Positions 3,119-13,921 of a stretch of DNA of 64,000 nt are shown in pieces. The DNA comes from an uncultured delta proteobacterium. GTDB taxonomy: Bacteria > Desulfobacterota > Binatia > Binatales > Binataceae. Under the pieces are notes generated by a model. The model searched no databases, was not told the origin of the DNA, and was given only the letters and a program-made list of their open reading frames with translations. The stretch spans positions 320,001-384,000 of the forward strand of contig CAVRVY010000003.1 in the NCBI GenBank assembly GCA_963724765.1, read 5' to 3'. The translations under genes and the position numbers were made by a program. Every line of letters starts with the position of its first letter. The stretch's first letter is position 1.

Positions 3119-4615
3119 CTACAAGGGTCGGCCGGTAGCCCTATTTACTGCGGCCTTTGCCACTGAAAACCCGTACAAGGCGCCAGCGTACGCGGCATCG
3201 TCGTAGGTGTAGTAACGCTGAGCGTCTTCCAATTCCACGATATTAGTCAGGCCTGTTTCGTAGCGTTTCTCCGCGAGTTCGAGTTCAACCCGCGAGGCTG
3301 CCAGCGCCTTCTCGGCCCGGCTGATACGCTGCAGGGCAGCCTGTAAATTCAAGAAGGTGGTCTGCACCTCAAGAATGATTCGCTGTTGCAGATCTTCGAT
3401 CGCGTCCCGAACTGCGCGTTGTTTGGCGTTGCTTTCGGTTATCTGATCGGTCGTGAGAAAGCTGTTGAAGATCGGCCATGTAATGAGGATGCCGACGTTG
3501 TAATTGTTGGCGGCCGGCAGCCCGGTGCCCATGGTCGAATAACCGCCTACCGCGCTGGCCGTAGGATAGTAGTCACTTCTGTACTCGACGACCTGAGCTG
3601 CGAGGGCCTTCGCCTGTTCGTCGAGTGCTTTCAAATCCGGCCGTTGCCGCATGGCGATCGCCAGCAGCGGTTGCAATTTCTCTTCGACTGGCGAGTACGT
3701 CAGGACGTCTGCGAGATGGTACTCAGGGGCGCGGTCGCTTAAGCCTAGCGCGTTGTTGAGTCCGACCTTGGCGTCCGCATAGTCATTTCTTGCGTCGACC
3801 AGATGAAGTTGCGCTCGCTCAACTTCAGCCTGCGTAACATAGACGTCGAGCTGGGGGCGAAGCCCCGCGTGAGCCTTCACCTGTGCTTCGTGCAGATGAT
3901 ACTGGCGTTGTTCCACAGCCTTTTCGTAGACGCGGATCAACTCCTTGGCCTGAAGGACTTCAAAATAGCGCTGCGAGACTTCGAAGATCAGATCGAGTTT
4001 GTCAAGTTGCTCAGACGCTGCAACCGAGGCGGCTTCGAACTTGCGCTGAGCGACGAAGCCGTGACGCCGCCCGAAGTCGAAGAGAAACTGAGAGACAGCC
4101 ACTCCCCCCATGTAATTGTTGCTGGTATTCCAACTCTGCGAAAAGTCGTTGATAGGCAAATCGTGGTTTATCCCGGTCATTCTCGGGAATGCACCCTCCG
4201 CGTCGTAATAACTCGTGTTTGCGACACCGTTCTCCGTGCTACCCAAATCCTGGGCAATACCGAAGACCTGAGGCCCGAGAAACGAACGAGCCTCGCCGAT
4301 TCGGGCGGTAGCGGCATTCGTATTTTCCGCCGCTTCCTTGATCCGCGGATGATACTTGAGCGCGATGGAAATCGCTTGCTTAAGCGTCAGTTCGGACCCT
4401 GTGGATATCGGCACCGCGGTTGGCGTGGTTCCGGAGCTCTGCGGGACAGTTAGAGTGGTCGACGCTGGCCAAACGGGAGACAACGGCGGTATCGTGGTCA
4501 AGAAGTTGGTGCCGGTTTGGCCCGTGAAAGTGCTGCCGGTCCCCGCTGCGGTCGCATAGCCGCGCGCAAGCGACAGAATGCACACGAGAAGCGCGAGAGT
4601 ACGCCGGTAGGCCAT
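3119..4615 (-). CDS. TolC-family outer membrane efflux protein
   Basis: Signal peptide, two OEP repeats (LTLKQAISIAL...; EKRYETGLTNIVELEDAQ); last gene of the RND operon. Confidence 0.92.
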   Translation of the reverse strand: MAYRRTLALLVCILSLARGYATAAGTGSTFTGQTGTNFLTTIPPLSPVWPASTTLTVPQSSGTTPTAVPISTGSELTLKQAISIALKYHPRIKEAAENTNAATARIGEARSFLGPQVFGIAQDLGSTENGVANTSYYDAEGAFPRMTGINHDLPINDFSQSWNTSNNYMGGVAVSQFLFDFGRRHGFVAQRKFEAASVAASEQLDKLDLIFEVSQRYFEVLQAKELIRVYEKAVEQRQYHLHEAQVKAHAGLRPQLDVYVTQAEVERAQLHLVDARNDYADAKVGLNNALGLSDRAPEYHLADVLTYSPVEEKLQPLLAIAMRQRPDLKALDEQAKALAAQVVEYRSDYYPTASAVGGYSTMGTGLPAANNYNVGILITWPIFNSFLTTDQITESNAKQRAVRDAIEDLQQRIILEVQTTFLNLQAALQRISRAEKALAASRVELELAEKRYETGLTNIVELEDAQRYYTYDDAAYAGALYGFSVAKAAVNRATGRPL

Positions 4616-4671
4616 AAGTTCACTCCACCAAGACTATGGATTTGGCAAGCGATGTTTTCCTGCTCATTGCT

Positions 4672-5832
4672 TCAGCCGACGCCGCCAGACAAGCCACTTG
4701 CTTCATGGGTGACCTTGCGCAGGCTGAAGCGGACCCGTTCCCCGGGGCTAAGCGCATTACTATAGGTGCCGACAACCAGTGATTCATCTTCCAATCCCGA
4801 TGTGACTTCCACCTGACTCCCATCATCGATACCGGTCGATATGGGAACCGCGGCTATGCGGCCTCGCTTGACAACCAAAACGCGCGCCGATTTTCCATTG
4901 CCCTGAATCGCAGCAGCCGGAACGCTCATGGCGTCGGAATGACGAATTAAGTCGAGAGTCACATGCGCATAGCTTCTGGGATAGAGCACGTGAGCCGGAT
5001 TATCGATATCGACCTCGGTCAGCATCGTTCGCGTGGCAAGGTCCAGCGAGGTCGCATATCTCGCCACTGACCCTTTGAACACGCGATTGGGGAATTCGTT
5101 GAAGCGCAAAATCGCCGGAGTTCCCCGGTGTATCAACGGATACGATGTCTCCGGGACATACACATAGACGCGCAGCTTCTCAATGCCCGCGAGTGTGAGA
5201 ATGGGGCCGCCTCCACCGCGGTGGCCGCCGGCGCCTTCAGTCGCACCGGGAGAAATCAATCCGGAGGTCTCGTCGATTCCGAAATCGCCGCCGCCAGCAC
5301 GGATCAAAGCGCCTGGATCGGCGAAGCGTCCCGTAATCACTCCGTCAAACGGCGCGACAATTCTCGTATATTCGACCATTGTTTGGAGGGTTCGCGTGGC
5401 GGCCTGTGTCTCCTGATATTTGGCGTAAGCCATGTCAACATCTTCTTGCGACACGAGCCGAGGATCGTTCTGTTGCACGTGTTTCAGCCGCTCGTAAGTA
5501 ATCCTTGCTATATCCAAATTTGCTTGTGCGCGAGCGAGGTTGGAACGGAGTTCTGGCACTTGAATCTGCGCCAATACCTGTCCTGCCTTTACCCAATCGC
5601 CCTTGTCCACGCTGATGGATTGCAGATAGCCGGTGACTTTGGCATGCAAGGCGGCTTCATAGAAACCCACTACATCACCAGGCAACTCGATGGTACGCAC
5701 CATCTCACCCCGTTGCGGATGAATGACGCTTACTGTAGGGTCCGGTGGATCGCCGCTCGGATCAGGTTTCTTGGCACACGCCCACGCTAGCGTGGCCATA
5801 GCCACGACGATCATAGCCATTTTTACGTTCAT
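4672..5832 (-). CDS. RND efflux periplasmic adaptor (membrane fusion protein)
   Basis: Lipobox-like AWAC, lipoyl/barrel motifs (AKVTGYLQSISVDKGDWVKAGQVL; IVAPFDGVIT); start at MNVKMA is preceded by GGAGGAG. Confidence 0.92.
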   Translation of the reverse strand: MNVKMAMIVVAMATLAWACAKKPDPSGDPPDPTVSVIHPQRGEMVRTIELPGDVVGFYEAALHAKVTGYLQSISVDKGDWVKAGQVLAQIQVPELRSNLARAQANLDIARITYERLKHVQQNDPRLVSQEDVDMAYAKYQETQAATRTLQTMVEYTRIVAPFDGVITGRFADPGALIRAGGGDFGIDETSGLISPGATEGAGGHRGGGGPILTLAGIEKLRVYVYVPETSYPLIHRGTPAILRFNEFPNRVFKGSVARYATSLDLATRTMLTEVDIDNPAHVLYPRSYAHVTLDLIRHSDAMSVPAAAIQGNGKSARVLVVKRGRIAAVPISTGIDDGSQVEVTSGLEDESLVVGTYSNALSPGERVRFSLRKVTHEASGLSGGVG

Positions 5833-5905
5833 ATACTCACTCTTCCACCTGGCTCCTCCCAAACTTCCGTAATCACTCACTCTACTAAGGCCTCGGTCGT
5901 CAAGG

Positions 5906-6558
5906 CTATAGGAAGCAAGCCCAACCACTGTGGCCAGAGACGGTAATAAGAATCAACCACATCCGCATCCTCGCTGAGTCCACCATAGCCTTACGCAAAT
6001 CGTCGCCCTGGCGCGCTCGCTCATTGGCGAAATCGACCAAAAGAATGGCATTTGTGACCGCGATCCCAACCATATAGACGACGCCCATCAAGGACTCTAT
6101 GTTGAGCGTCGTGCCTTTCGCCCATAGCGTCCAGACTACCCCGATCAGGCCCATTGGCACCGCGAACATGGCAATGAAGAGGTCGAGAAAGGTGCGGAAC
6201 TTGCGCCACCATCACCAAGTACACCAGGATCACGGCTATGAATAGACCGCAATCCATACTTGCGAGGGACGAGCGCATCGCCACAATCGCGCCGCGATAG
6301 TTGACCGAGACGCCGCTGGGCAGACCGAGACGGTGGAGCGCTTTTTCGATGGCGTTCTGCGTCCTGCCAACATCCTCGTCGCTCGGCGACACGAGCAGAT
6401 CCGGCATGCCCTGGTAAAACGTCGCCAACATCACTGCCGGAATTTTGATGTTCCGGAGGACGTCGACTAACATCCGCTTGAACGCCATCGCCCAATATCA
6501 TCACGATCGGCGCTCCGACGATTATCGTGTACGAATTACGCAGAAACACACTTGGCAT
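5906..6558 (-). pseudogene. Internally deleted, frameshifted paralogue of the adjacent RND permease
   Basis: Pieces in three frames match permease residues 1-53 (MPSVFLRNSYTIIVGA...ATFYQGMP) joined directly to residue 832 onward (DLLVSPS...MFAVPMGLIGV...SARMRM). Confidence 0.9.
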
Positions 6559-6599
6559 TTTATGCTGTTCTCATCTGAATCTTCACGCTGCCACACGGG

Positions 6600-9500
6600 C
6601 TAGTCCAGGATTTCAACGCGCTCGAGCCGCGCATAGAACAACTCATACACACATGGTACGAGAACGAGCGTGAGTATCGTGGAAACGATGAGGCCGCCGA
6701 CGGCGGCGCGAGCCAAGGGCGCCGAGGCTTCGGAACCCTCGCCCAGTTTGAGCGCAATCGGCATCAGCCCGGCAACCGTCGCCAGCGCTGTCATTAGGAT
6801 AGGTCGCATGCGAATCCGCGCCGATTCGACCACGGCGCGCCGCAGAGGCTGATTCTGCTTGCGCCGTTCGTTGGCGAAGTCGACGAGCAGAATCGAGTTC
6901 GAAACCACGATACCGACCATCACGATGATTCCCATGAACGACTCGATGTTGAGCGTCGTATTAGTCGCCCAAAGCGTCCAGATCACACCGATCAGCCCCA
7001 TCGGAACAGCGAACATGATAATTAAAGGGTCCAAAAACGATCCGAATTGCGCGACCATTACCAGGTAAAGCAGGACCACTGCCAGCGATAGTCCAAACCC
7101 GAAACTCGAAAATGAGGCATGCATGGCGGCCACCGATCCGCGATAGTTTATCGTGACTCCCCGGGGCAGACTTAGCCGGGCCAGCGCCTTCTCGATCGCG
7201 GTTTGAGTTCCGCCCAGGTCCTGGCCGCTGGGCGATACCAGCAGATCGACCGTGCGCTGAATGTTGTAGTGGTCAGCTTCGGACGGATGGTACTCGGGGA
7301 CAACCGACGCCACGTCACGCAGCAAGAGGCTTTGTGCGTGGCCGGTTTCGCGCGGGTTGCTCTGTACGGGGATGTCCTCCACTGCTCCCAGAGAATTAAA
7401 ACCATTGTCCGCCCCAAGATACTGAACCGTCAGGAAGTAATCGTTGTTATTCGTACGATCTATCCAGATAGAAGGCTTGATGTAGAGGTTGGAATTCAGC
7501 GCGGTTATCACGTTGGAGATAATGTCTTTTTGGCTGATACCCAAACGAGCCGACCTAATCCGGTCAACCTGGATATTCAGCGTAGGATACTGGGACTCCT
7601 GCTGAATGAAGGTCTGAGAGACTTGAGGAAGACCGTCAACCGCTTCTCGTGCCTCGTCGGCGGCTTTGTATAAGGAAGTGAATTGGCCTCCAGCAAATTG
7701 CACGTCGATCGGCGCCATCATTCCAAAGCTGAGAACCGCGTCGATGATGCTGCCCGAGGAAAAGAGGGTGCGTACCTCGGGCAGGTCATGCGCTAGCAGC
7801 TTCTTCAGGCGCTCGACGTAATATGCGGTAAGCCTTTGATGTCCTTCCTTGAGTGCGACTTCGAGAAAGCCCGAGTCTTCCGCCGCGTTCGGCGAGTAAA
7901 TGGCGGAGATGCTGGGAGCGAGGCCGATATTGGAGACCACCATGTCGAGATCGCTTGACGGAATCGTCCTGCGTATCTCTGCCTCGATCTTGTGCGCCAA
8001 CTCGGTGGTGAGTTCAAGGCGCGTGCCCGCCGGAGCCCGGAAGTTGATAGTGAAGGTTCCCGCGTCAGTTTCGGGAAACAGTTCGGTCCCGAGCAAGGGA
8101 TAAATTGCCATACTCCCAACGAAGAGGATCGTGACAGCGGCGATAACCGGGAACTTGTGGTTTAGGGCCCGCTCCAGAACGTGTTCGTAACTTAGTGCGA
8201 ACCGCTCGTACGCGCGGTTGAACGTCCCCAGCGGCCCTCGGCCCTGACCATGTTCTGCCGCCGTTGCTTGGGCCGCGGAGAGAAAACGAGTGCAATAAAT
8301 GGGTATCACACTCATCGCGACCAGGTACGAGGCGGTCATGGAGAGCACCACGGCCAGTGCCAGGGCACTGAAGAGATACTTCGCCACCCCGAACAGAAAC
8401 ATCACCGGAAAGAACACGATGCAGGTAGTGACTGTGGAGGCGAGCACGGGAAGCGCGACCTCTTCGGCGCCGTCGCGTGCGGCCTCGTCCGAGGGCTTGC
8501 CCTTCGCCAGATGGCGATTGATGTTCTCGAGCACGACGACCGAGTCGTCGACCAATCGGCCAATCGCCAGTGCAAAGCCGCCCAAAGTCATGATGTTGAT
8601 GGTCGAGCCATTCATATACAGACCGAACGCTCCGGCCAGGATCGAAAGCGGAATCGATAGAAAAATCGCGAACGTAGACCGAAAACTGCCGAGGAAGATT
8701 AGAATCATCAGCGAGGCCAGCACCGAGCCTGATACCGCCTCGTGTTCCAGGCTCTCTACCGCCTGTCTGATGTAGGTGGACTGGTCGAAAATTGTCTTGA
8801 GCTTCATTCCGGGCGGCAACCCAAAGACCTTGGGCAGCATCTTCTTGATCCCATCCACCACCGAAATGGTGTTGGCGCCCACCTGGCGCAGCACCGGAAT
8901 GTAAACCGACGGCTGCCCGTTAATCAGCACTTTGTTGTATTGAATCTGCGATGAGTCATCGACCCGCGCCACATCCCGAATCAACACCGGCGCCTGACCG
9001 CGACCGACTTTCACAGGCACTGAGCCGATCCTCTGGATCTTTTCGATCATGCTATTGGAATAAATGTAGTAATCCTTAGCGCCGATCTTCACGTCGCCGG
9101 CCGGCAGGATCAGGTTGGAGTTGTCAAGCGCGTGCACCACATTCATCAGGGATAGCCCGCGCGCCTGTAGCGCCTGCGCGTCAGCGTACACCATCACCTG
9201 GCGAAACTTGCCGCCGAACGGGATCGGCACCGAAGCTCCCGGCACCGTGGCGAGTTGATTGCGGATGTTGTAGCGGGCCTGATCCTCAATCTGGGCCTCG
9301 TTGTACCCCTCACCCTCCGCCGTCACCAGCACAACCGGCAGCGAAGAAGCGTCGTACTGCAACACCAACGGGGGCAGAGTCCCAGGCGGCATGATCCCCA
9401 GGTCCGCCATCGCCAACGTCCCCATCTGGGCTGCCGCCGCCTCGATGTCGGTGCCCGGCTGGAAAAACACCTTGATGATACTCACGCCCGACAGCGAGCG

Positions 9501-9740
9501 CGATTCCACATGCTCGATGTTGCTGCCGAGCGTGAAGAAGCGCTCATAGCGGAAGGTGATGTTGTCCTCCATGTCCAGCGGCGGCATTCCCTGGTAAAAG
9601 GTCGCCACCACCACCGCCGGAATCTTTATGTTGGGGAAGACGTCGACCGGCATCCGCATGAATGCCGTTACGCCCAGTATAACCACTATCAGCGCTCCGA
9701 CGATTATTGTGTACGGATTACGCAGCGAAAAACTTGGCAC
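6600..9740 (-). CDS. RND efflux transporter permease (AcrB/CusA superfamily), 1046 aa
   Basis: Length, GRLVDDSVVVLENI proton-relay motif, RMRPILMT motif; GTG start with SD GAAGGGA. Confidence 0.95.
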   Translation of the reverse strand: MPSFSLRNPYTIIVGALIVVILGVTAFMRMPVDVFPNIKIPAVVVATFYQGMPPLDMEDNITFRYERFFTLGSNIEHVESRSLSGVSIIKVFFQPGTDIEAAAAQMGTLAMADLGIMPPGTLPPLVLQYDASSLPVVLVTAEGEGYNEAQIEDQARYNIRNQLATVPGASVPIPFGGKFRQVMVYADAQALQARGLSLMNVVHALDNSNLILPAGDVKIGAKDYYIYSNSMIEKIQRIGSVPVKVGRGQAPVLIRDVARVDDSSQIQYNKVLINGQPSVYIPVLRQVGANTISVVDGIKKMLPKVFGLPPGMKLKTIFDQSTYIRQAVESLEHEAVSGSVLASLMILIFLGSFRSTFAIFLSIPLSILAGAFGLYMNGSTINIMTLGGFALAIGRLVDDSVVVLENINRHLAKGKPSDEAARDGAEEVALPVLASTVTTCIVFFPVMFLFGVAKYLFSALALAVVLSMTASYLVAMSVIPIYCTRFLSAAQATAAEHGQGRGPLGTFNRAYERFALSYEHVLERALNHKFPVIAAVTILFVGSMAIYPLLGTELFPETDAGTFTINFRAPAGTRLELTTELAHKIEAEIRRTIPSSDLDMVVSNIGLAPSISAIYSPNAAEDSGFLEVALKEGHQRLTAYYVERLKKLLAHDLPEVRTLFSSGSIIDAVLSFGMMAPIDVQFAGGQFTSLYKAADEAREAVDGLPQVSQTFIQQESQYPTLNIQVDRIRSARLGISQKDIISNVITALNSNLYIKPSIWIDRTNNNDYFLTVQYLGADNGFNSLGAVEDIPVQSNPRETGHAQSLLLRDVASVVPEYHPSEADHYNIQRTVDLLVSPSGQDLGGTQTAIEKALARLSLPRGVTINYRGSVAAMHASFSSFGFGLSLAVVLLYLVMVAQFGSFLDPLIIMFAVPMGLIGVIWTLWATNTTLNIESFMGIIVMVGIVVSNSILLVDFANERRKQNQPLRRAVVESARIRMRPILMTALATVAGLMPIALKLGEGSEASAPLARAAVGGLIVSTILTLVLVPCVYELFYARLERVEILD

Positions 9741-9850
9741 TGAACAATCCCTTCGACGAGCGCGGCGTGCAGCCGCGCAAGACTATAGCTCGACCAGATC
9801 GCACACGGCGCTTGCGCCCGATGATGCGGCTCAGGAGTCCGAAAGGCTGC

Positions 9851-10204
9851 TCAGATGAGCGGATATTCGCTGTCAGCGCGGGAAGGGATACGTCTGAGGG
9901 GCCAGATGAATCGTCGGTCCTCGCGAGAGAACGCTCTCGAAACGTTAGTGGAACGAACGATTCGAGCCACTAGGCACACTACGACTGGCTCGAAGTTTGA
10001 AGCCTTATACGCCTTGCGTAAAGTAGCGTCTTCGTCGACCGAAGCGTCATTCACGAACCGGTGGGGACCCTCCAGATTTCTTTGTTGAACTGGTCGCCAC
10101 TTCGGCGTTGCATGGGGAAGCCGCAATCTCGGCACCAACACCACGATGCTTGCCAATGCAAGAATCGCGGCCAGCAGTCCAAGGTGTTGCCTTCGTCGAT
10201 TCAT
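9851..10204 (-). CDS. Leader-type small protein 2 (N-terminal hydrophobic segment, C-terminal LRRIPS)
   Basis: 117 aa; basic N-terminus plus hydrophobic helix; same layout as 10988-11332; lies 110 nt upstream of the RND start. Confidence 0.6.
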   Translation of the reverse strand: MNRRRQHLGLLAAILALASIVVLVPRLRLPHATPKWRPVQQRNLEGPHRFVNDASVDEDATLRKAYKASNFEPVVVCLVARIVRSTNVSRAFSREDRRFIWPLRRIPSRADSEYPLI

Positions 10205-10296
10205 GACGCCCGATTATTTCTAGCTGTTAGCTCCCCGAGAAACCAAAATGCAAGTCCCTGATCGCATGTAGGCCCTCCTGAAGCATACTAACAAAT

Positions 10297-10842
10297 CTAC
10301 CGCGTGCCTCGTTTGACTCCACGATGAAACCACCGATGAACGCGGCCATCAGCCCCGCTATCTCTGTACTCGTCTTTGTGGCTATCGGGCACCATCGTGT
10401 CGGAAGACACGCGATCCGCTTCAATGGATGCACTAATGGCGTCTCTCTTGTGAGCAGTAGCCGTCTCCAATTCCGCCTGACAATCCACGCAATGGAGCGC
10501 TGTCGGCATCGCGCGCAGCCGCTCGAACGAGATCCTGTCTCCACATGCTTCACAAATGCCGTAACGGCCATGCTCTAAACGCTCGAAGGCGCTACAAATC
10601 GCGGCGAGCCGCCTTTCTGACATCTCGATGAAACTCACATGCAGGTCCATCTCCTCGTGCTGTCGGGCCTCGTCCAACTGATCGCCCGGAATCGGAGCCT
10701 TCTGCTCGATCTCGCTGAGCACAAGCTGCCTCAGTCTTCGAAGCTCCTGGTCACGCGATCTCTGCAACATGCTCTTCAATGTCCTGGTGTAATTTGGTGG
10801 AGGAACTTGAGTCTGCGTCGTGGGCAAATTTCTTCCTAACAT
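10297..10842 (-). CDS. TraR/DksA-family C4 zinc-finger protein
   Basis: DxxDxA motif (DQLDEA), coiled coil, YGICEACG...RLRAMP...CVDC; SD GGAAGAGGA. Confidence 0.9.
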   Translation of the reverse strand: MLGRNLPTTQTQVPPPNYTRTLKSMLQRSRDQELRRLRQLVLSEIEQKAPIPGDQLDEARQHEEMDLHVSFIEMSERRLAAICSAFERLEHGRYGICEACGDRISFERLRAMPTALHCVDCQAELETATAHKRDAISASIEADRVSSDTMVPDSHKDEYRDSGADGRVHRWFHRGVKRGTR

Positions 10843-10987
10843 GATCCTCTTCCTTCTGGCTTCGCGGCCACAAAAACGTGTTCAAATGGCTGACGCCTGA
10901 CCGCGCTGAACGGCCAGCCTCAGCCGGAGCCACGACGCCGCCAAACAAAATAGCGGTTCGCTTCAGCCGGGATTTGTTGGAAGAGAA

Positions 10988-11332
10988 CTAGTGGACGTCG
11001 TCGGGCCCAGGGGGCGGAATTCTACGGTGGACGAGCCCGCATTTATTGGGTAACGTCTTCATGATGACCCGCTCGAATCGCGGGCGTGCTAGCGGGATTT
11101 GGGAGGCCAAGCAGCTGAATTCGAGAGCAGCGGTCGCTCGAACGTCGGGGCTTCTGCTGCCCACTTCCTCCCGGATGTGTCGCGTGAGCTTCTGATATTT
11201 AATCGCTACCGACGGCTGCGGGCTGAAGGAGAGCGATTCCATAGGGCGGATGGTTCGTGCGAACGTGAAGACGCAAAACAAAATCGCGATTAGCGAGGAG
11301 TATCTTCCGAAATTGCTGTCACGCCCTAGCAT
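10988..11332 (-). CDS. Leader-type small protein 1 (N-terminal hydrophobic segment, C-terminal HRRIPPP)
   Basis: 114 aa; first ORF after a near-consensus promoter; hydrophobic SSLIAILFCVFTFA; ends HRRIPPPGPDDVH. Confidence 0.6.
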   Translation of the reverse strand: MLGRDSNFGRYSSLIAILFCVFTFARTIRPMESLSFSPQPSVAIKYQKLTRHIREEVGSRSPDVRATAALEFSCLASQIPLARPRFERVIMKTLPNKCGLVHRRIPPPGPDDVH

Positions 11333-11392
11333 TTTTCGGCCGCTCTACTGCCCATCGAATTTGAACCGCCTAACCTCACACAATCTCCGTGA

Positions 11393-11420
11393 AGTATAGC
11401 CGTCGGACCAATGGTGTCAA
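11393..11420 (-). promoter_or_regulatory. Sigma-70-type promoter TTGACA-N16-TATACT
   Basis: Reverse complement of tgtcaa (11415-11420) and agtata (11393-11398); ~60 nt upstream of leader ORF 1. Confidence 0.7.
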
Positions 11421-11755
11421 ACGAATACCATTCCGGGCGCAGGCCACCCCGCATCAGGTGTTTCAAAAGTATGTGCTGCAGCACAGACAAGCGGCCCTCC
11501 AGCCTCACCGCAAGGCGGGGTCCGAGGTTACTGATCATGGTCGCCCGCGTTCGTACCCAACCCAGTCGTCGCGCCTTGCGAAGGAGATACGACTGAGACG
11601 CCACCGGGCCTGCGGCACCTCGCAGTCCCCCCTGCTTGAGCGGCCTTCACGGCTCCCTTAACGCAGCTACGCACAAGCGTTGTGCGGCCGTCAAGAGAGA
11701 ACATTGACTGGCCCCCTGATCGCAGTTTGACTCCTTTCGAGACGGGAAGGCTCTA

Positions 11756-12565
11756 TCACTTCTTCCAGAACGGATCGTTCGTCGCGTCAGGCAGATGTTT
11801 GGGATCGAACAACGGCGCGGGCGCTTGCTTGTCGTATTTCACGCTCGTCACATCGATCTCACTACTGCCGCCCGACTGCACATCGTCCATAACGATCTTC
11901 ATGATGGTGGGTATCTTGTCAATTGTTGTGATCTTTTCGAAGTGCTCGGACTTGAATAGCTTGCCATCGACGTCGTCCAAATCGCGCTCGAGCGGCAGAT
12001 CCGTATCGACGGCGACCCAAGTAACAACTTTTGAGTAGTAAGGATTATTAGCCAGGTCCTCTTCCAGCTTATAGGCCTTCACGCCGTCGTGAACCTCGAT
12101 CCCGTCCAGTTTCTCATGGCCGCCGAAGCGGATGAAGCTCAAATCTTCGTATGTGAAGTCGGTTCCGAAGAAGGGTTCGTAGCCGGCGACTGGCGTGATC
12201 TCGCGCACGCGGCGAACTGCCGGCAGATATGAGTATTCGGCAACCTTTATGCCAGGCCGCTGCTTGGCCAGAAAAGCGATGCCCCTGGCGTCCGCCGGCT
12301 TGAGCACCACGGTCAGCATCCAATCGGCGTCGTTCACGTGCGCGCGCGCCTGCCCAAGCGTCCATTGAGTGGCGAAACCACCATTGCTGTTGACCTTCAA
12401 TGTCATCATGCGCACGCTGGGACGCACGGGCTCCAGCGTCTGCTTCATGCGATTTACAATTGAAGCTGCGTCCGGCGCTGCCGCCAGTGCGTGAGCCCTA
12501 GTTGAGAATGCGAAAACAACAAGCAGAAGAATTGCTGCCGCGACGGCTACAACGCGTCCCAACAT
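11756..12565 (-). CDS. LolA-like outer-membrane lipoprotein-sorting protein
   Basis: Signal peptide; DARGIAFL, YLPAVRRVREI and FFGTDFTYEDL motifs; SD AAGGAGG. Confidence 0.85.
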   Translation of the reverse strand: MLGRVVAVAAAILLLVVFAFSTRAHALAAAPDAASIVNRMKQTLEPVRPSVRMMTLKVNSNGGFATQWTLGQARAHVNDADWMLTVVLKPADARGIAFLAKQRPGIKVAEYSYLPAVRRVREITPVAGYEPFFGTDFTYEDLSFIRFGGHEKLDGIEVHDGVKAYKLEEDLANNPYYSKVVTWVAVDTDLPLERDLDDVDGKLFKSEHFEKITTIDKIPTIMKIVMDDVQSGGSSEIDVTSVKYDKQAPAPLFDPKHLPDATNDPFWKK

Positions 12566-13057
12566 ACTTGCCTCCTTGCGTGAACATTTAATAGGACTTT
12601 AATCTAACGATTGCATCGCCGCTAAGTGTTGCTCAGCCTCCCTCTGGACTTGAGACGATCCGAACCTGTAGGTCATTCAATAGCAGCAGCGAGGTTTATG
12701 GACCAATAGCGGAGAGGTTTATTGGCAGCCTCATGCTGCCTCTGGTCGATTCGCCATTCACACGCTTATAAGTTCGAACCTTGGCAAATCCGAGCATTTC
12801 AAGATCCATCTTACGGCGGGACATAGCACTAAAGTTAGCGGCGGAAGGCATTCGGCCATCGACTCTTCGATTCGTTCCATCAATGAACGTTTCTGCCATC
12901 GTCGGAGGTCTATCTGGTCAGGGCCTCCATGTCTTTGAAGCCGAGCTGGCGGCACGCGCAAGTACCCCAGAAGACACGGTTTTTGTTCCTCACATAACCT
13001 TCCATTTGCCTTGATCGCTGCATAGAGCATAGGGTTGTTGTTCCTCAAGGTGCAATT

Positions 13058-13921
13058 TTGAATGAGACTAGAAATCTGCCAGACAGTGACCTCGACAAGC
13101 TGACCCGCCTCAAGGCTCTGTCGTGGCTTTCCGCTGCTGAGCTCGGATTGCTGGCCGGAGCGCTGACACTCGCCAACTTCAATCGGTCCCAAATAATCCT
13201 CCACGAAGCGGCGCTCGCATCTGAAGCGCACATCCTATTAAAAGGTATCGCACGCATCACGTGCCAGAACGCCCGCGGCGAACGGGTGACCATCGCCCTG
13301 CTTCCACCGGGTCCGCTGCCCGAGTTTCCTGCGCTGCCATTTAACCGGTTCGATTTTCGGTGCGAGGCTTACGATGATTGCAGAGTCGGCAGCGTGAGCT
13401 GGAGCGATTTCGAACGTATCGCTGCGCATCGCTCCGAATCGGTCTTCAAGATTTTTCATGCGAACGATTTGCAACAGTGCTACCGGCTGCTGCTGCGCAG
13501 CTCCAGTCTTCTCAACCTCGATCTTCACGAACGAATCGCGATTACGCTGCTCGAACTGGCTTCCGACTTCGGAATCAAAGAGTCGCGCGGCGCGCTGCTG
13601 CGAGCATCGTTCAGCCATCAGGACATTGCCGATCTCGTCGGCGCTTCGCGGCCCAGAGTCACCGAACACCTGGCGCAATTGGAGCGTGAGCACTTGGTCA
13701 TTCGTCAAGGCCGGCACCTGATTGTGCGCGTGGATGAAATCGGAAATGCAGTCACGGTCCCGGCGTCGAACGGACTTGGCGCACAACCACACCCACTCGG
13801 GAAAGAAAAACCGCTCTTCGCAGCGTCAAACAGGACCGGTTGGTCGGGCGCCAAACCCACGCGTCGAGTTGGGCACGGGCATGATAGGTCTGCCGCGGCC
13901 CTCATGGGCGCCCGTAGCTGA
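13058..13921 (+). CDS. Crp/Fnr-family transcriptional regulator
   Basis: cNMP-binding-like N-terminal domain and HTH (SHQDIADLVGASRPRVTEHL); TTG start. Confidence 0.88.
   Translation: MNETRNLPDSDLDKLTRLKALSWLSAAELGLLAGALTLANFNRSQIILHEAALASEAHILLKGIARITCQNARGERVTIALLPPGPLPEFPALPFNRFDFRCEAYDDCRVGSVSWSDFERIAAHRSESVFKIFHANDLQQCYRLLLRSSSLLNLDLHERIAITLLELASDFGIKESRGALLRASFSHQDIADLVGASRPRVTEHLAQLEREHLVIRQGRHLIVRVDEIGNAVTVPASNGLGAQPHPLGKEKPLFAASNRTGWSGAKPTRRVGHGHDRSAAALMGARS

Follow-up and report, generated by a model that had tools for sequence, protein, structure and literature searches.

Two related families of small membrane-anchored proteins encoded ahead of DksA-like and RND efflux genes in Binataceae, candidate cis-acting upstream open reading frames

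In the 64,000-nucleotide stretch of Binataceae contig CAVRVY010000003.1 analysed here (the window), two small open reading frames (ORFs) each lie ahead of a larger gene: ORF A precedes a gene for a DksA/TraR-family protein and ORF B precedes a gene for an AcrB-type RND efflux permease. Neither ORF is a chance one; they are real genes and represent two related families (families A and B) restricted to one lineage. Both follow a common plan, in which an N-terminal membrane or signal helix is followed by a spacer of about 75 residues without a confident fold and by a conserved block close to the stop codon. These families and their architecture are solidly established and are undescribed as far as the literature was searched. 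We tentatively propose that both ORFs are cis-acting regulatory upstream ORFs (uORFs) of a new motif class, a proposal that falls somewhat short of an even chance. Of the readings considered, it accounts best for the gene context and for the plan of the peptides, and its key step, pausing of the ribosome, is one that we infer. A first-pass annotation of this DNA had described the two ORFs, their RRIP tails, a promoter-like site and one complementarity to each of the Shine-Dalgarno (SD) sequences of the next genes, and all of these were found on inspection of the sequence (Table 1).

The distribution of the families was determined by profile searches with hidden Markov models (HMMs) in 165 genomes of the order to which the window belongs, all of one family and representing 30 genera. 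Family A was detected in 55 of these genomes and 11 of the genera, and a single genome carried as many as 7 matches. Family B was detected in 60 genomes and 13 genera, a tally that counts one genome flagged as unpublished (G078). No family A match was found in any of 300 other genomes that sampled the phylum evenly (3 of the 300 in the same family). There was no internal stop codon among the family A matches listed and a single TGA within one of the listed B matches. Two B-family matches, in G013 (L051) and G007, lie within open frames of 596 and 601 aa, respectively, and are possible fusions to an upstream gene or cases of a missing stop. The protein database contained 49 clusters related to A and 54 related to B, none of them with a Pfam domain and all, where a name was given, called ‘hypothetical protein’; two of the B relatives are labelled Candidatus Binataceae, and the proteins P0019, P0023 and P0035 are A relatives at 70–73% identity. 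Neither A nor B matched a Pfam family (E up to 0.01) or an NCBIfam model, and the ESM Atlas gave no usable match for either. Searches of PDB sequence profiles returned 0 matches for A and only two chance-level ones for B (E 0.55 and 6.2). A metagenome scan for close relatives of A picked up two metalloprotease-like ORFs, which are unrelated and merely contain PPPGPDDVH. In the literature on efflux or leader peptides, neither Binatia nor Binatota was named among the matches listed.

In all 33 distinct members of family A the N-terminus is basic and R-P-L comes after a hydrophobic helix, with a 15-residue hydrophobic stretch of mean hydropathy 2.0–2.7 in 33 of 33. The C-terminal block reads V-x-x-W-P-x(5)-[HF]-R-R-[ITL]-x-P-x(3)-D; R103, R104 and D111 are nearly invariant in the 49 sequences aligned, and W-P stands 6–9 residues upstream in most of them. 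In the 30 members that match the motif pattern, the spacer between the helix and RR measures 73–81 residues, and RR lies 11–15 residues from the stop in 29 of them. A further block in the middle of the protein, L-T-R-H-x-x-E-E-V-G, is also conserved in family A. Family B is built from a helix, a G-x-H-R-F-like element and the tail R-R/L-[KR]-[IL]-x-P-[SA]-[RH]-x-[DE]-x-x-D-P. The tail is kept across the subfamilies, one of which carries 8–9 extra residues past it. In AlphaFold2 predictions from 49-sequence alignments only the membrane helix was confident in both proteins. For A (mean predicted local distance difference test (pLDDT) 57.6), helices were predicted only at residues 6–28 and 43–53 and none after 53, and for B (mean pLDDT 62.7), helix 3–27 reached a pLDDT of 84–92 and the remainder 51–67. 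In the tail the residues are conserved and the codons vary, as under selection on the peptide. At the RNA level, synonymous-codon identity climbs toward the stop in four subgroups, a point in favour of the cis-acting reading. Thus the first-pass annotation, which had made its proposal depend on conservation of the ORFs and of the motif in homologous loci, found support in full-length families with conserved C-terminal blocks.

The same annotation had pointed out the likeness of the two tails. Although A and B cannot be aligned overall, their tails match by hhalign over 26 C-terminal columns (E 2.7e-4, probability 42%); an earlier comparison with small alignments had given a probability of 2% and no relation between A and B, and was replaced by that of the larger profiles. 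A single ORF in locus L040 matches the HMMs of both families.

The genes that follow are of several kinds. Among 31 distinct B loci, 27 have an RND permease start (xPSFSLR...) 88–119 nt past the B stop, and one of the other four, L002, has permease fragments. Downstream of A, the next co-directional gene, scored in 30 loci, belongs to zf-dskA_traR in 15 cases, DUF1329 in 6 and Usp in 1, and has no Pfam domain in 8, four of the latter encoding Cys-rich products of 85–86 aa. The remaining 3 of the 33 A loci were excluded on account of a frameshifted dksA-like gene (L009), a start out of range (the second copy in L025) or an uncertain start (L065). The gaps between A and the next gene mostly measure 107–181 nt. 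In one genus the A paralogues (L020, L021, L022, L025, L027, L028 and L039) share the conserved sequence TTCGCGC-TAAC-CAGCG about 25–45 nt past the stop, and the genes downstream differ (DUF1329, a small Cys-rich protein, a lipoprotein-like gene); ORF A and this element seem to move as one module. The stop codons of family A are TAG in 19, TAA in 11 and TGA in 3 members (n = 33) and those of family B TAA in 14, TGA in 10 and TAG in 3 (n = 27), whereas in the window's genome long ORFs end in TGA, TAG and TAA in 50, 30 and 21% of cases; since the loci are related, the bias in family A is a hint only.

The tandem arrangement of the window, which the first-pass annotation had taken for a cascade served by one promoter, did not hold up as a conserved unit, because A and B modules are neighbours (within ±1.5 kb) in only 5 of the 31 B loci. 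Three of these are tandem (L001, L010 and L014) and two divergent (L035 and L065), and the divergent pairs suggest that the two modules are linked repeatedly, and not just in tandem.

The main alternative to a role in cis is that A and B are trans-acting small membrane or secreted proteins, for instance envelope-stress peptides or accessory partners, that share a transcript with their neighbours. In that case the mature protein would use the tail as a motif for binding or processing. We consider this alternative a serious one, though on the whole somewhat doubtful. AcrZ is a small single-helix membrane protein associated with an RND pump, and B, too, is a small protein with one helix whose gene neighbours that of an RND pump. 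B is over twice as long as AcrZ, however, and ends in a long tail that is unfolded; about 100 nt of structured sequence lie between its gene and that of the pump, and its sister family, A, is found in front of genes that do not encode pumps. Paralogues precede genes for products of the cytoplasm (DksA-like, Usp), the periplasm (DUF1329) and the membrane (RND), which is easier to reconcile with a regulator in cis than with a subunit. Gaps of about 90–180 nt are also long for subunit genes, no fold is predicted past the membrane helix, and the conserved block invariably lies near the stop. Pairing between the ribosome-binding site (RBS) and the ORF end, described below, also speaks against the alternative, being commoner than in control gene pairs.

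In 27 of 31 loci B is placed directly ahead of the RND efflux operon, and the RND RBS is masked in the model described below; both points would also suit a leader that senses a drug or ligand and induces the pump when a ribosome-targeting compound stalls translation. Leaders of this kind, such as ErmCL, CatA86L and those of MexXY, are short, ranging from a few codons to a few dozen, and lack a membrane helix, whereas ORF A and ORF B encode 114 and 117 aa with a membrane helix each, and family A precedes genes outside resistance. We regard this explanation as very unlikely.

According to the cis-acting reading, the RBS of the next gene would pair with the last ~15 codons of the small ORF and the first ~15 nt after its stop, and initiation on the next gene would depend on ribosomes sitting at the 3' end of the small ORF. 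The SD of the dksA-like gene would be held by one lock, the post-stop sequence UUCUCUUCC, and the RND site by two redundant locks, CAUCUGAGCAGCCUUUCG and the I-P-S codons AUCCCUUC, so that it would open only with ribosomes over both, e.g. in a queue at the stop. Close to the stop, the conserved tail may slow or arrest the ribosome; the time for which the ribosome dwells there may be tuned by a ligand or by targeting of the N-terminus to the membrane, and downstream translation would respond to that dwell.

In the window, UUCUCUUCC is predicted to pair with the SD GGAAGAGGA over 9 bp with one G-U, or 10 bp when extended (G-UUCUCUUCC / GGAAGAGGA-U), both in the minimum free energy (MFE) structure and in the centroid. 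It is the main partner of this SD in the free mRNA, in agreement with the helix proposed for the first leader. For the second leader, the proposed complement within the I-P-S codons, AUCCCUUC, is indeed a perfect 8-bp match to the RND SD GAAGGGAU, but the fold favours another partner: it joins the RND site CGAAGGGAUUGUUCAGUG to the stop-codon segment CAUCUGAGCAGCCUUUCG, with 17 MFE pairs over the SD and the GUG start, and leaves I-P-S as a fallback. When the 42 stop-proximal nucleotides of B were shuffled, 1.2 pairs with the RBS were expected in place of 15.9, and the real value was matched in 0 of 60 shuffles, whereas shuffling the 18 nt after the A stop changed little (10.8 to 9.9). The fold energies of the whole stretches were ordinary (z −0.97 and −0.68). 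A hairpin in the middle of the A-dksA gap (~10880–10910; columns 113–140 of alignment A5) is kept in 8 loci of the same lineage, with two-sided changes in several pairs; it would draw the stop region near the RBS.

The effect of a ribosome was modelled as an unpaired block from −12 to +15 about the P-site. The probability that the dksA-like SD is unpaired was 0.11 in the free mRNA, 0.04–0.14 with the ribosome on R-R-I-P-P and 0.36–0.51 with the ribosome on the last 4 codons or the stop. For the RND SD the value was 0.13 in the free mRNA and fell to 0.01 when a single ribosome stood at the stop, because the SD then switches to AUCCCUUC, at −36 to −29 from the stop; it reached 0.46 when two ribosomes were stacked or the ORF end was fully covered. 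The idea that a stalled or terminating ribosome frees the downstream SD therefore stands in the model for the dksA-like gene at the last 4 codons or stop, and for the RND gene when both complements are covered, but a ribosome placed on RRIP itself frees neither SD.

These values bear on a simpler explanation, plain translational coupling, in which there is no programmed pause, the finishing ribosome transiently melts a masking helix and so ties the output of the next gene to that of the small one, and the peptide has an unrelated function. Long-range translational coupling is an established mechanism (PMC12548453, used here in excerpt, as are PMC10987492 and PMC12992588 below), and the pairing of a downstream RBS with the end of the upstream ORF, as modelled for A-dksA, resembles the RBS-masking helix of that mechanism. 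The opening of the dksA-like SD only with a ribosome at the last 4 codons or stop, and not at RRIP, is what such coupling predicts, and the enrichment of ORF-end/RBS pairing over controls is in line with it. In contrast to that mechanism, the gaps here are 88–181 nt long with internal hairpins, the RND SD has two complements, and the upstream peptide is conserved. The last point sets A and B apart, since plain coupling needs no conserved peptide and leaves the near-stop conservation of the tail unexplained. Moreover, one terminating ribosome leaves the RND SD more paired than before, and the modelled gains in accessibility are small. We therefore judge plain coupling to be unlikely.

Across the families, pairing was measured as T, the sum of the probabilities of all pairs that the RBS (start −16 to +2) forms with the 3' zone of the small ORF (45 nt before to 20 nt past the stop), in 30 A and 27 B loci out of ~145 genomic matches. 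As controls we took 250 pairs of co-directional genes from the same genome, separated by 85–180 nt; these rest on crude ORF calls and starts assigned by an SD heuristic. The controls had a median T of 1.8, compared with 7.6 in A and 10.0 in B (rank-test p 5e-4 and 3e-8, respectively, not kinship-corrected), and T reached 8 or more in 20% of the controls, 47% of the A loci (14/30) and 74% of the B loci (20/27). A wider folding context (75/30 nt) gave medians of 0.13, 3.9 and 5.4. The loci of the window, with 10.8 expected pairs for A-dksA and about 16 (15.9–16.2) for B-RND, lie above the control median of 1.8. According to an ungapped-helix score, the RBS preferred its own partner to swapped ones in 93% of the B loci (~25/27).

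A number of results weigh against the cis-acting reading. Raw duplex energies were no better than those of the controls, and own partners differed little from swapped ones (−19.0 vs −17.7 kcal/mol). When the preference for own partners under the ungapped-helix score was collapsed to 9 B lineages, the permutation gave no significant covariation (p 0.11). Synonymous recoding of the last 15 codons had little effect on mean T, which went from 9.6 to 8.4 in B and from 6.7 to 5.8 in A. Shuffling the 18 nt after the stop left a mean T of 5.7 in the A loci, and stop-proximal shuffling reached p <= 0.05 in 4 of 27 B loci. These data do not demonstrate selection for family-wide pairing, for which the first-pass annotation had suggested covarying anti-SD/SD pairs as a check. 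Covering the ORF end increased RBS accessibility by only +0.06 to +0.07, compared with +0.02 in controls (p ~0.02, not kinship-corrected). The position of the partner varies by subfamily, being post-stop in some lineages and within the motif codons in others, and in one B cluster the SD is masked by a local hairpin instead. RNAalifold, applied to two groups of A intergenic regions, found local hairpins only and no consensus long-range helix, because the alignments were too divergent. At the peptide level, the mid-block of family A is a hint that the mature protein has a function. The 4-mer RRIP is not avoided in the proteome, unlike RAPP, RGPP and RAGP: in 3546 long ORFs of the genome the observed/expected ratios were 0.95 for RRIP and 0.79 for RIPP vs 0.48 for RAPP, 0.37 for RGPP and 0.44 for RAGP. 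Nor is Ile tolerated at position 2 of the motif in ApdA/ApdP (excerpt of PMC12992588), whereas the motif of A and B is R-R-[ITLN]-x-P. Finally, in a permafrost metatranscriptome two 151-nt contigs match the dksA-like gene of the window with 1–3 differences and cover only 10394–10686; they hint at expression of this gene in a near relative, and the small ORFs are uncovered in that library, which is uninformative either way.

Several of these results speak for the trans-acting alternative. Peptide conservation in three blocks, including the mid-block of A, the persistence of pairing after recoding and shuffling, the non-significant covariation and the lack of RRIP avoidance are all to be expected of small proteins that work as such, and the gene callers' label of hypothetical protein agrees with this. 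RBS pairing would then be incidental, with C/U-rich codons meeting a purine-rich SD. The fraction of C/U in the first 12 post-stop nucleotides is 0.67 in A and 0.50 in the controls, and the survival of pairing under recoding and shuffling implies that C/U-rich Pro/Ser/Arg codons and post-stop sequence meeting a purine-rich SD may explain much of the enrichment. The RNA evidence is suggestive and not decisive.

In their layout, A and B resemble SecM, MifM, VemP, ApcA, ApdA/ApdP and the RQH family (excerpt of PMC10987492): a small uORF outside any known family with an N-terminal helix, a spacer, a near-stop block and a predicted pairing with the SD. The criteria by which arrest peptides of the monitoring-substrate type were sought are a uORF of sec/yidC genes, a signal or membrane segment at the N-terminus, conservation of the C-terminus and >30 residues of spacer (PMC10987492, same excerpt). 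Three of these four features are present in A and B, namely the membrane segment, the conserved C-terminus and the spacer, and the downstream gene is of another class. Unlike the SecM/MifM/VemP group, A and B precede genes for a DksA/TraR paralogue, AcrB-type RND, DUF1329 and Usp, and not secA, secDF or yidC. Their motif is also unrelated in sequence to those of that group, and arrest by A and B is putative.

A resemblance may also be seen to the RAPP-like C-terminal arrest peptides, including CruR, which are small secretory proteins ahead of diverse genes (excerpt of PMC12992588). Like these, A and B are small membrane proteins with an Arg/Pro motif by the C-terminus and precede genes outside protein localisation. 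At the second position of the ApdA/ApdP motif, Gly is fully tolerated and Ser, Asp and Pro partly (in ApdP also Val and Glu), according to the excerpted PMC12992588. The tails found here are RRIPPP, RRILPS, RRTLPP, RRLAPA and RRIPSR, and none contains R-[A/G]-P-[P/G] or R-A-G-P. A and B are therefore not members of the RAPP type, because position 2 is Ile, Thr, Leu or Asn and RRIP is not depleted; the first-pass annotation, which cited RAGP/RAPP-type motifs as the known parallel, had itself placed RRIP in a different family. The depletion of RAPP, RGPP and RAGP in the window's genome (0.37–0.48) agrees with the published proteome-wide avoidance. DUF2946, named in that annotation as the CruR domain, was not matched by A or B in Pfam (E up to 0.01). 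That A and B are known RAPP/RAGP or Sec/YidC monitoring substrates (SecM, ApcA, ApdA/ApdP, CruR) is thus contradicted by the motif and by the class of downstream gene; the membrane signal, the spacer and the Arg/Pro tail are the same, and the A tail of the window holds R-I-P-P, but position 4 is often not Pro, and neither another Pfam family nor a PDB relative was found. We attach almost no weight to this possibility. A mechanism like that of the RAPP type, despite a different motif, may nevertheless operate. The main text of PMC12992588 does not contain DksA, RND, efflux or Binat, and its supplements may add downstream gene classes.

The cis-acting reading can be carried one step further, to the rather improbable but specific proposal of a new class of ribosome-arrest or termination-pause peptides. 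Their motif, W-P-x(5)-[HF]-R-R-[ITL]-x-P-x(3)-D, would have no relation to RAPP, and the uORFs that carry it, membrane-targeted and ~115 residues long, would have multiplied inside a single uncultured lineage to as many as 7 copies in a genome. Such peptides might act as sensors of the envelope, of secretion or of a ligand and switch DksA-like, RND, DUF1329 and Usp genes, the two-lock RBS of the RND gene needing a queue of ribosomes.

The features of the locus are listed in Table 1.

Table 1 Features of the locus with ORF A and ORF B in the window
Feature	Position	Strand	Remarks
Promoter-like TTGACA-N16-TATACT	11420..11393	minus	σ70-like, 11/12 matches, upstream of ORF A
ORF A, small membrane-anchored peptide, family A	11332..10988	minus	114 aa, tail HRRIPPPGPDDVH
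Codons of the conserved C-terminal block of ORF A, HRRIPPPGPDDVH	11029..10991	minus	R103, R104 and D111 nearly invariant
Post-stop UUCUCUUCC	10987..10979	minus	Complement of the dksA-like SD; paired in MFE and centroid
SD GGAAGAGGA of the DksA-like gene	10853..10845	minus	From sequence and fold
DksA/TraR-family C4 zinc-finger gene	10842..10297	minus	181 aa; PF01258 2.6e-14, 53.4 bits vs cut-off 24.9
ORF B, small membrane-anchored peptide, family B	10204..9851	minus	117 aa, tail LRRIPSRADSEYPLI
Codons of the C-terminal block of ORF B, LRRIPSRADSEYPLI	9898..9854	minus	Block conserved across subfamilies
AUCCCUUC within the I-P-S codons of ORF B	9889..9882	minus	Second (fallback) complement of the RND SD GAAGGGAU
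Stop-spanning segment CAUCUGAGCAGCCUUUCG of ORF B	9857..9840	minus	Favoured partner of the RND RBS
RND RBS CGAAGGGAUUGUUCAGUG (SD and GUG start)	9755..9738	minus	SD core GAAGGGAU at 9754..9747
AcrB-type RND efflux permease	9740..6600	minus	1046 aa; PF00873 6.4e-207; RND_permease_2 6.5e-173
Second RND permease, fragments	6558-5906	minus	N-terminal piece MPSVFLRNSYTIIVG... and C-terminal pieces, between the intact permease and the adaptor
Periplasmic adaptor	5928..4672	minus	HlyD_D23; RND_mfp 4e-56
TolC-family outer-membrane protein	4615..3119	minus	TolC family 4e-38

The promoter-like sequence ahead of ORF A is the sole such site in 8.2 kb (4500–12700), for which shuffled sequence averaged 3.4. 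Weaker promoter-like sites were found at the same offset (−84 to −88) in 5 loci of the same genus, with 9/12 matches in L011, L009 and L012 and 7/12 in L010 and L014. The gaps between A and dksA, dksA and B, and B and RND amount to 145, 92 and 110 nt; none of them contains an intrinsic-terminator-like site on the minus strand, and an Rfam search of 9000–12000 (E up to 1) returned no family. The DksA-like protein scored 67.7 bits against TIGR02420, the dksA equivalog, under the cut-off of 115.5. It is therefore a divergent paralogue, as DksA equivalog scores lie below the cut-offs. The RND permease gave weak matches to SecDF models (1e-9 or worse). Permease fragments comparable to those of the window also occur 3' of the B gene in the relative locus L002. 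Directly upstream of the promoter-like site, a LolA-like protein (PF17131, 4e-33) is encoded at 12565–11756 on the minus strand, and past it lies a gene for a Crp/Fnr-type regulator (13058–13921, plus strand). DUF1329/LolA-like genes are frequent downstream partners of family A in other loci too.

Even without the cis-acting model, two uncharacterised, multi-copy families of small proteins have been defined that are tightly linked to DksA-like and RND genes and have so far been annotated as hypothetical. If the tails do hold ribosomes, nascent-peptide sensing would gain two classes of targets, a family of RNA-polymerase-binding regulators and a multidrug-type efflux pump. It would also gain an arrest motif independent of RAPP, from a lineage known mainly by metagenomes, and a testable case in which a single sensor module has been duplicated ahead of many stress genes.

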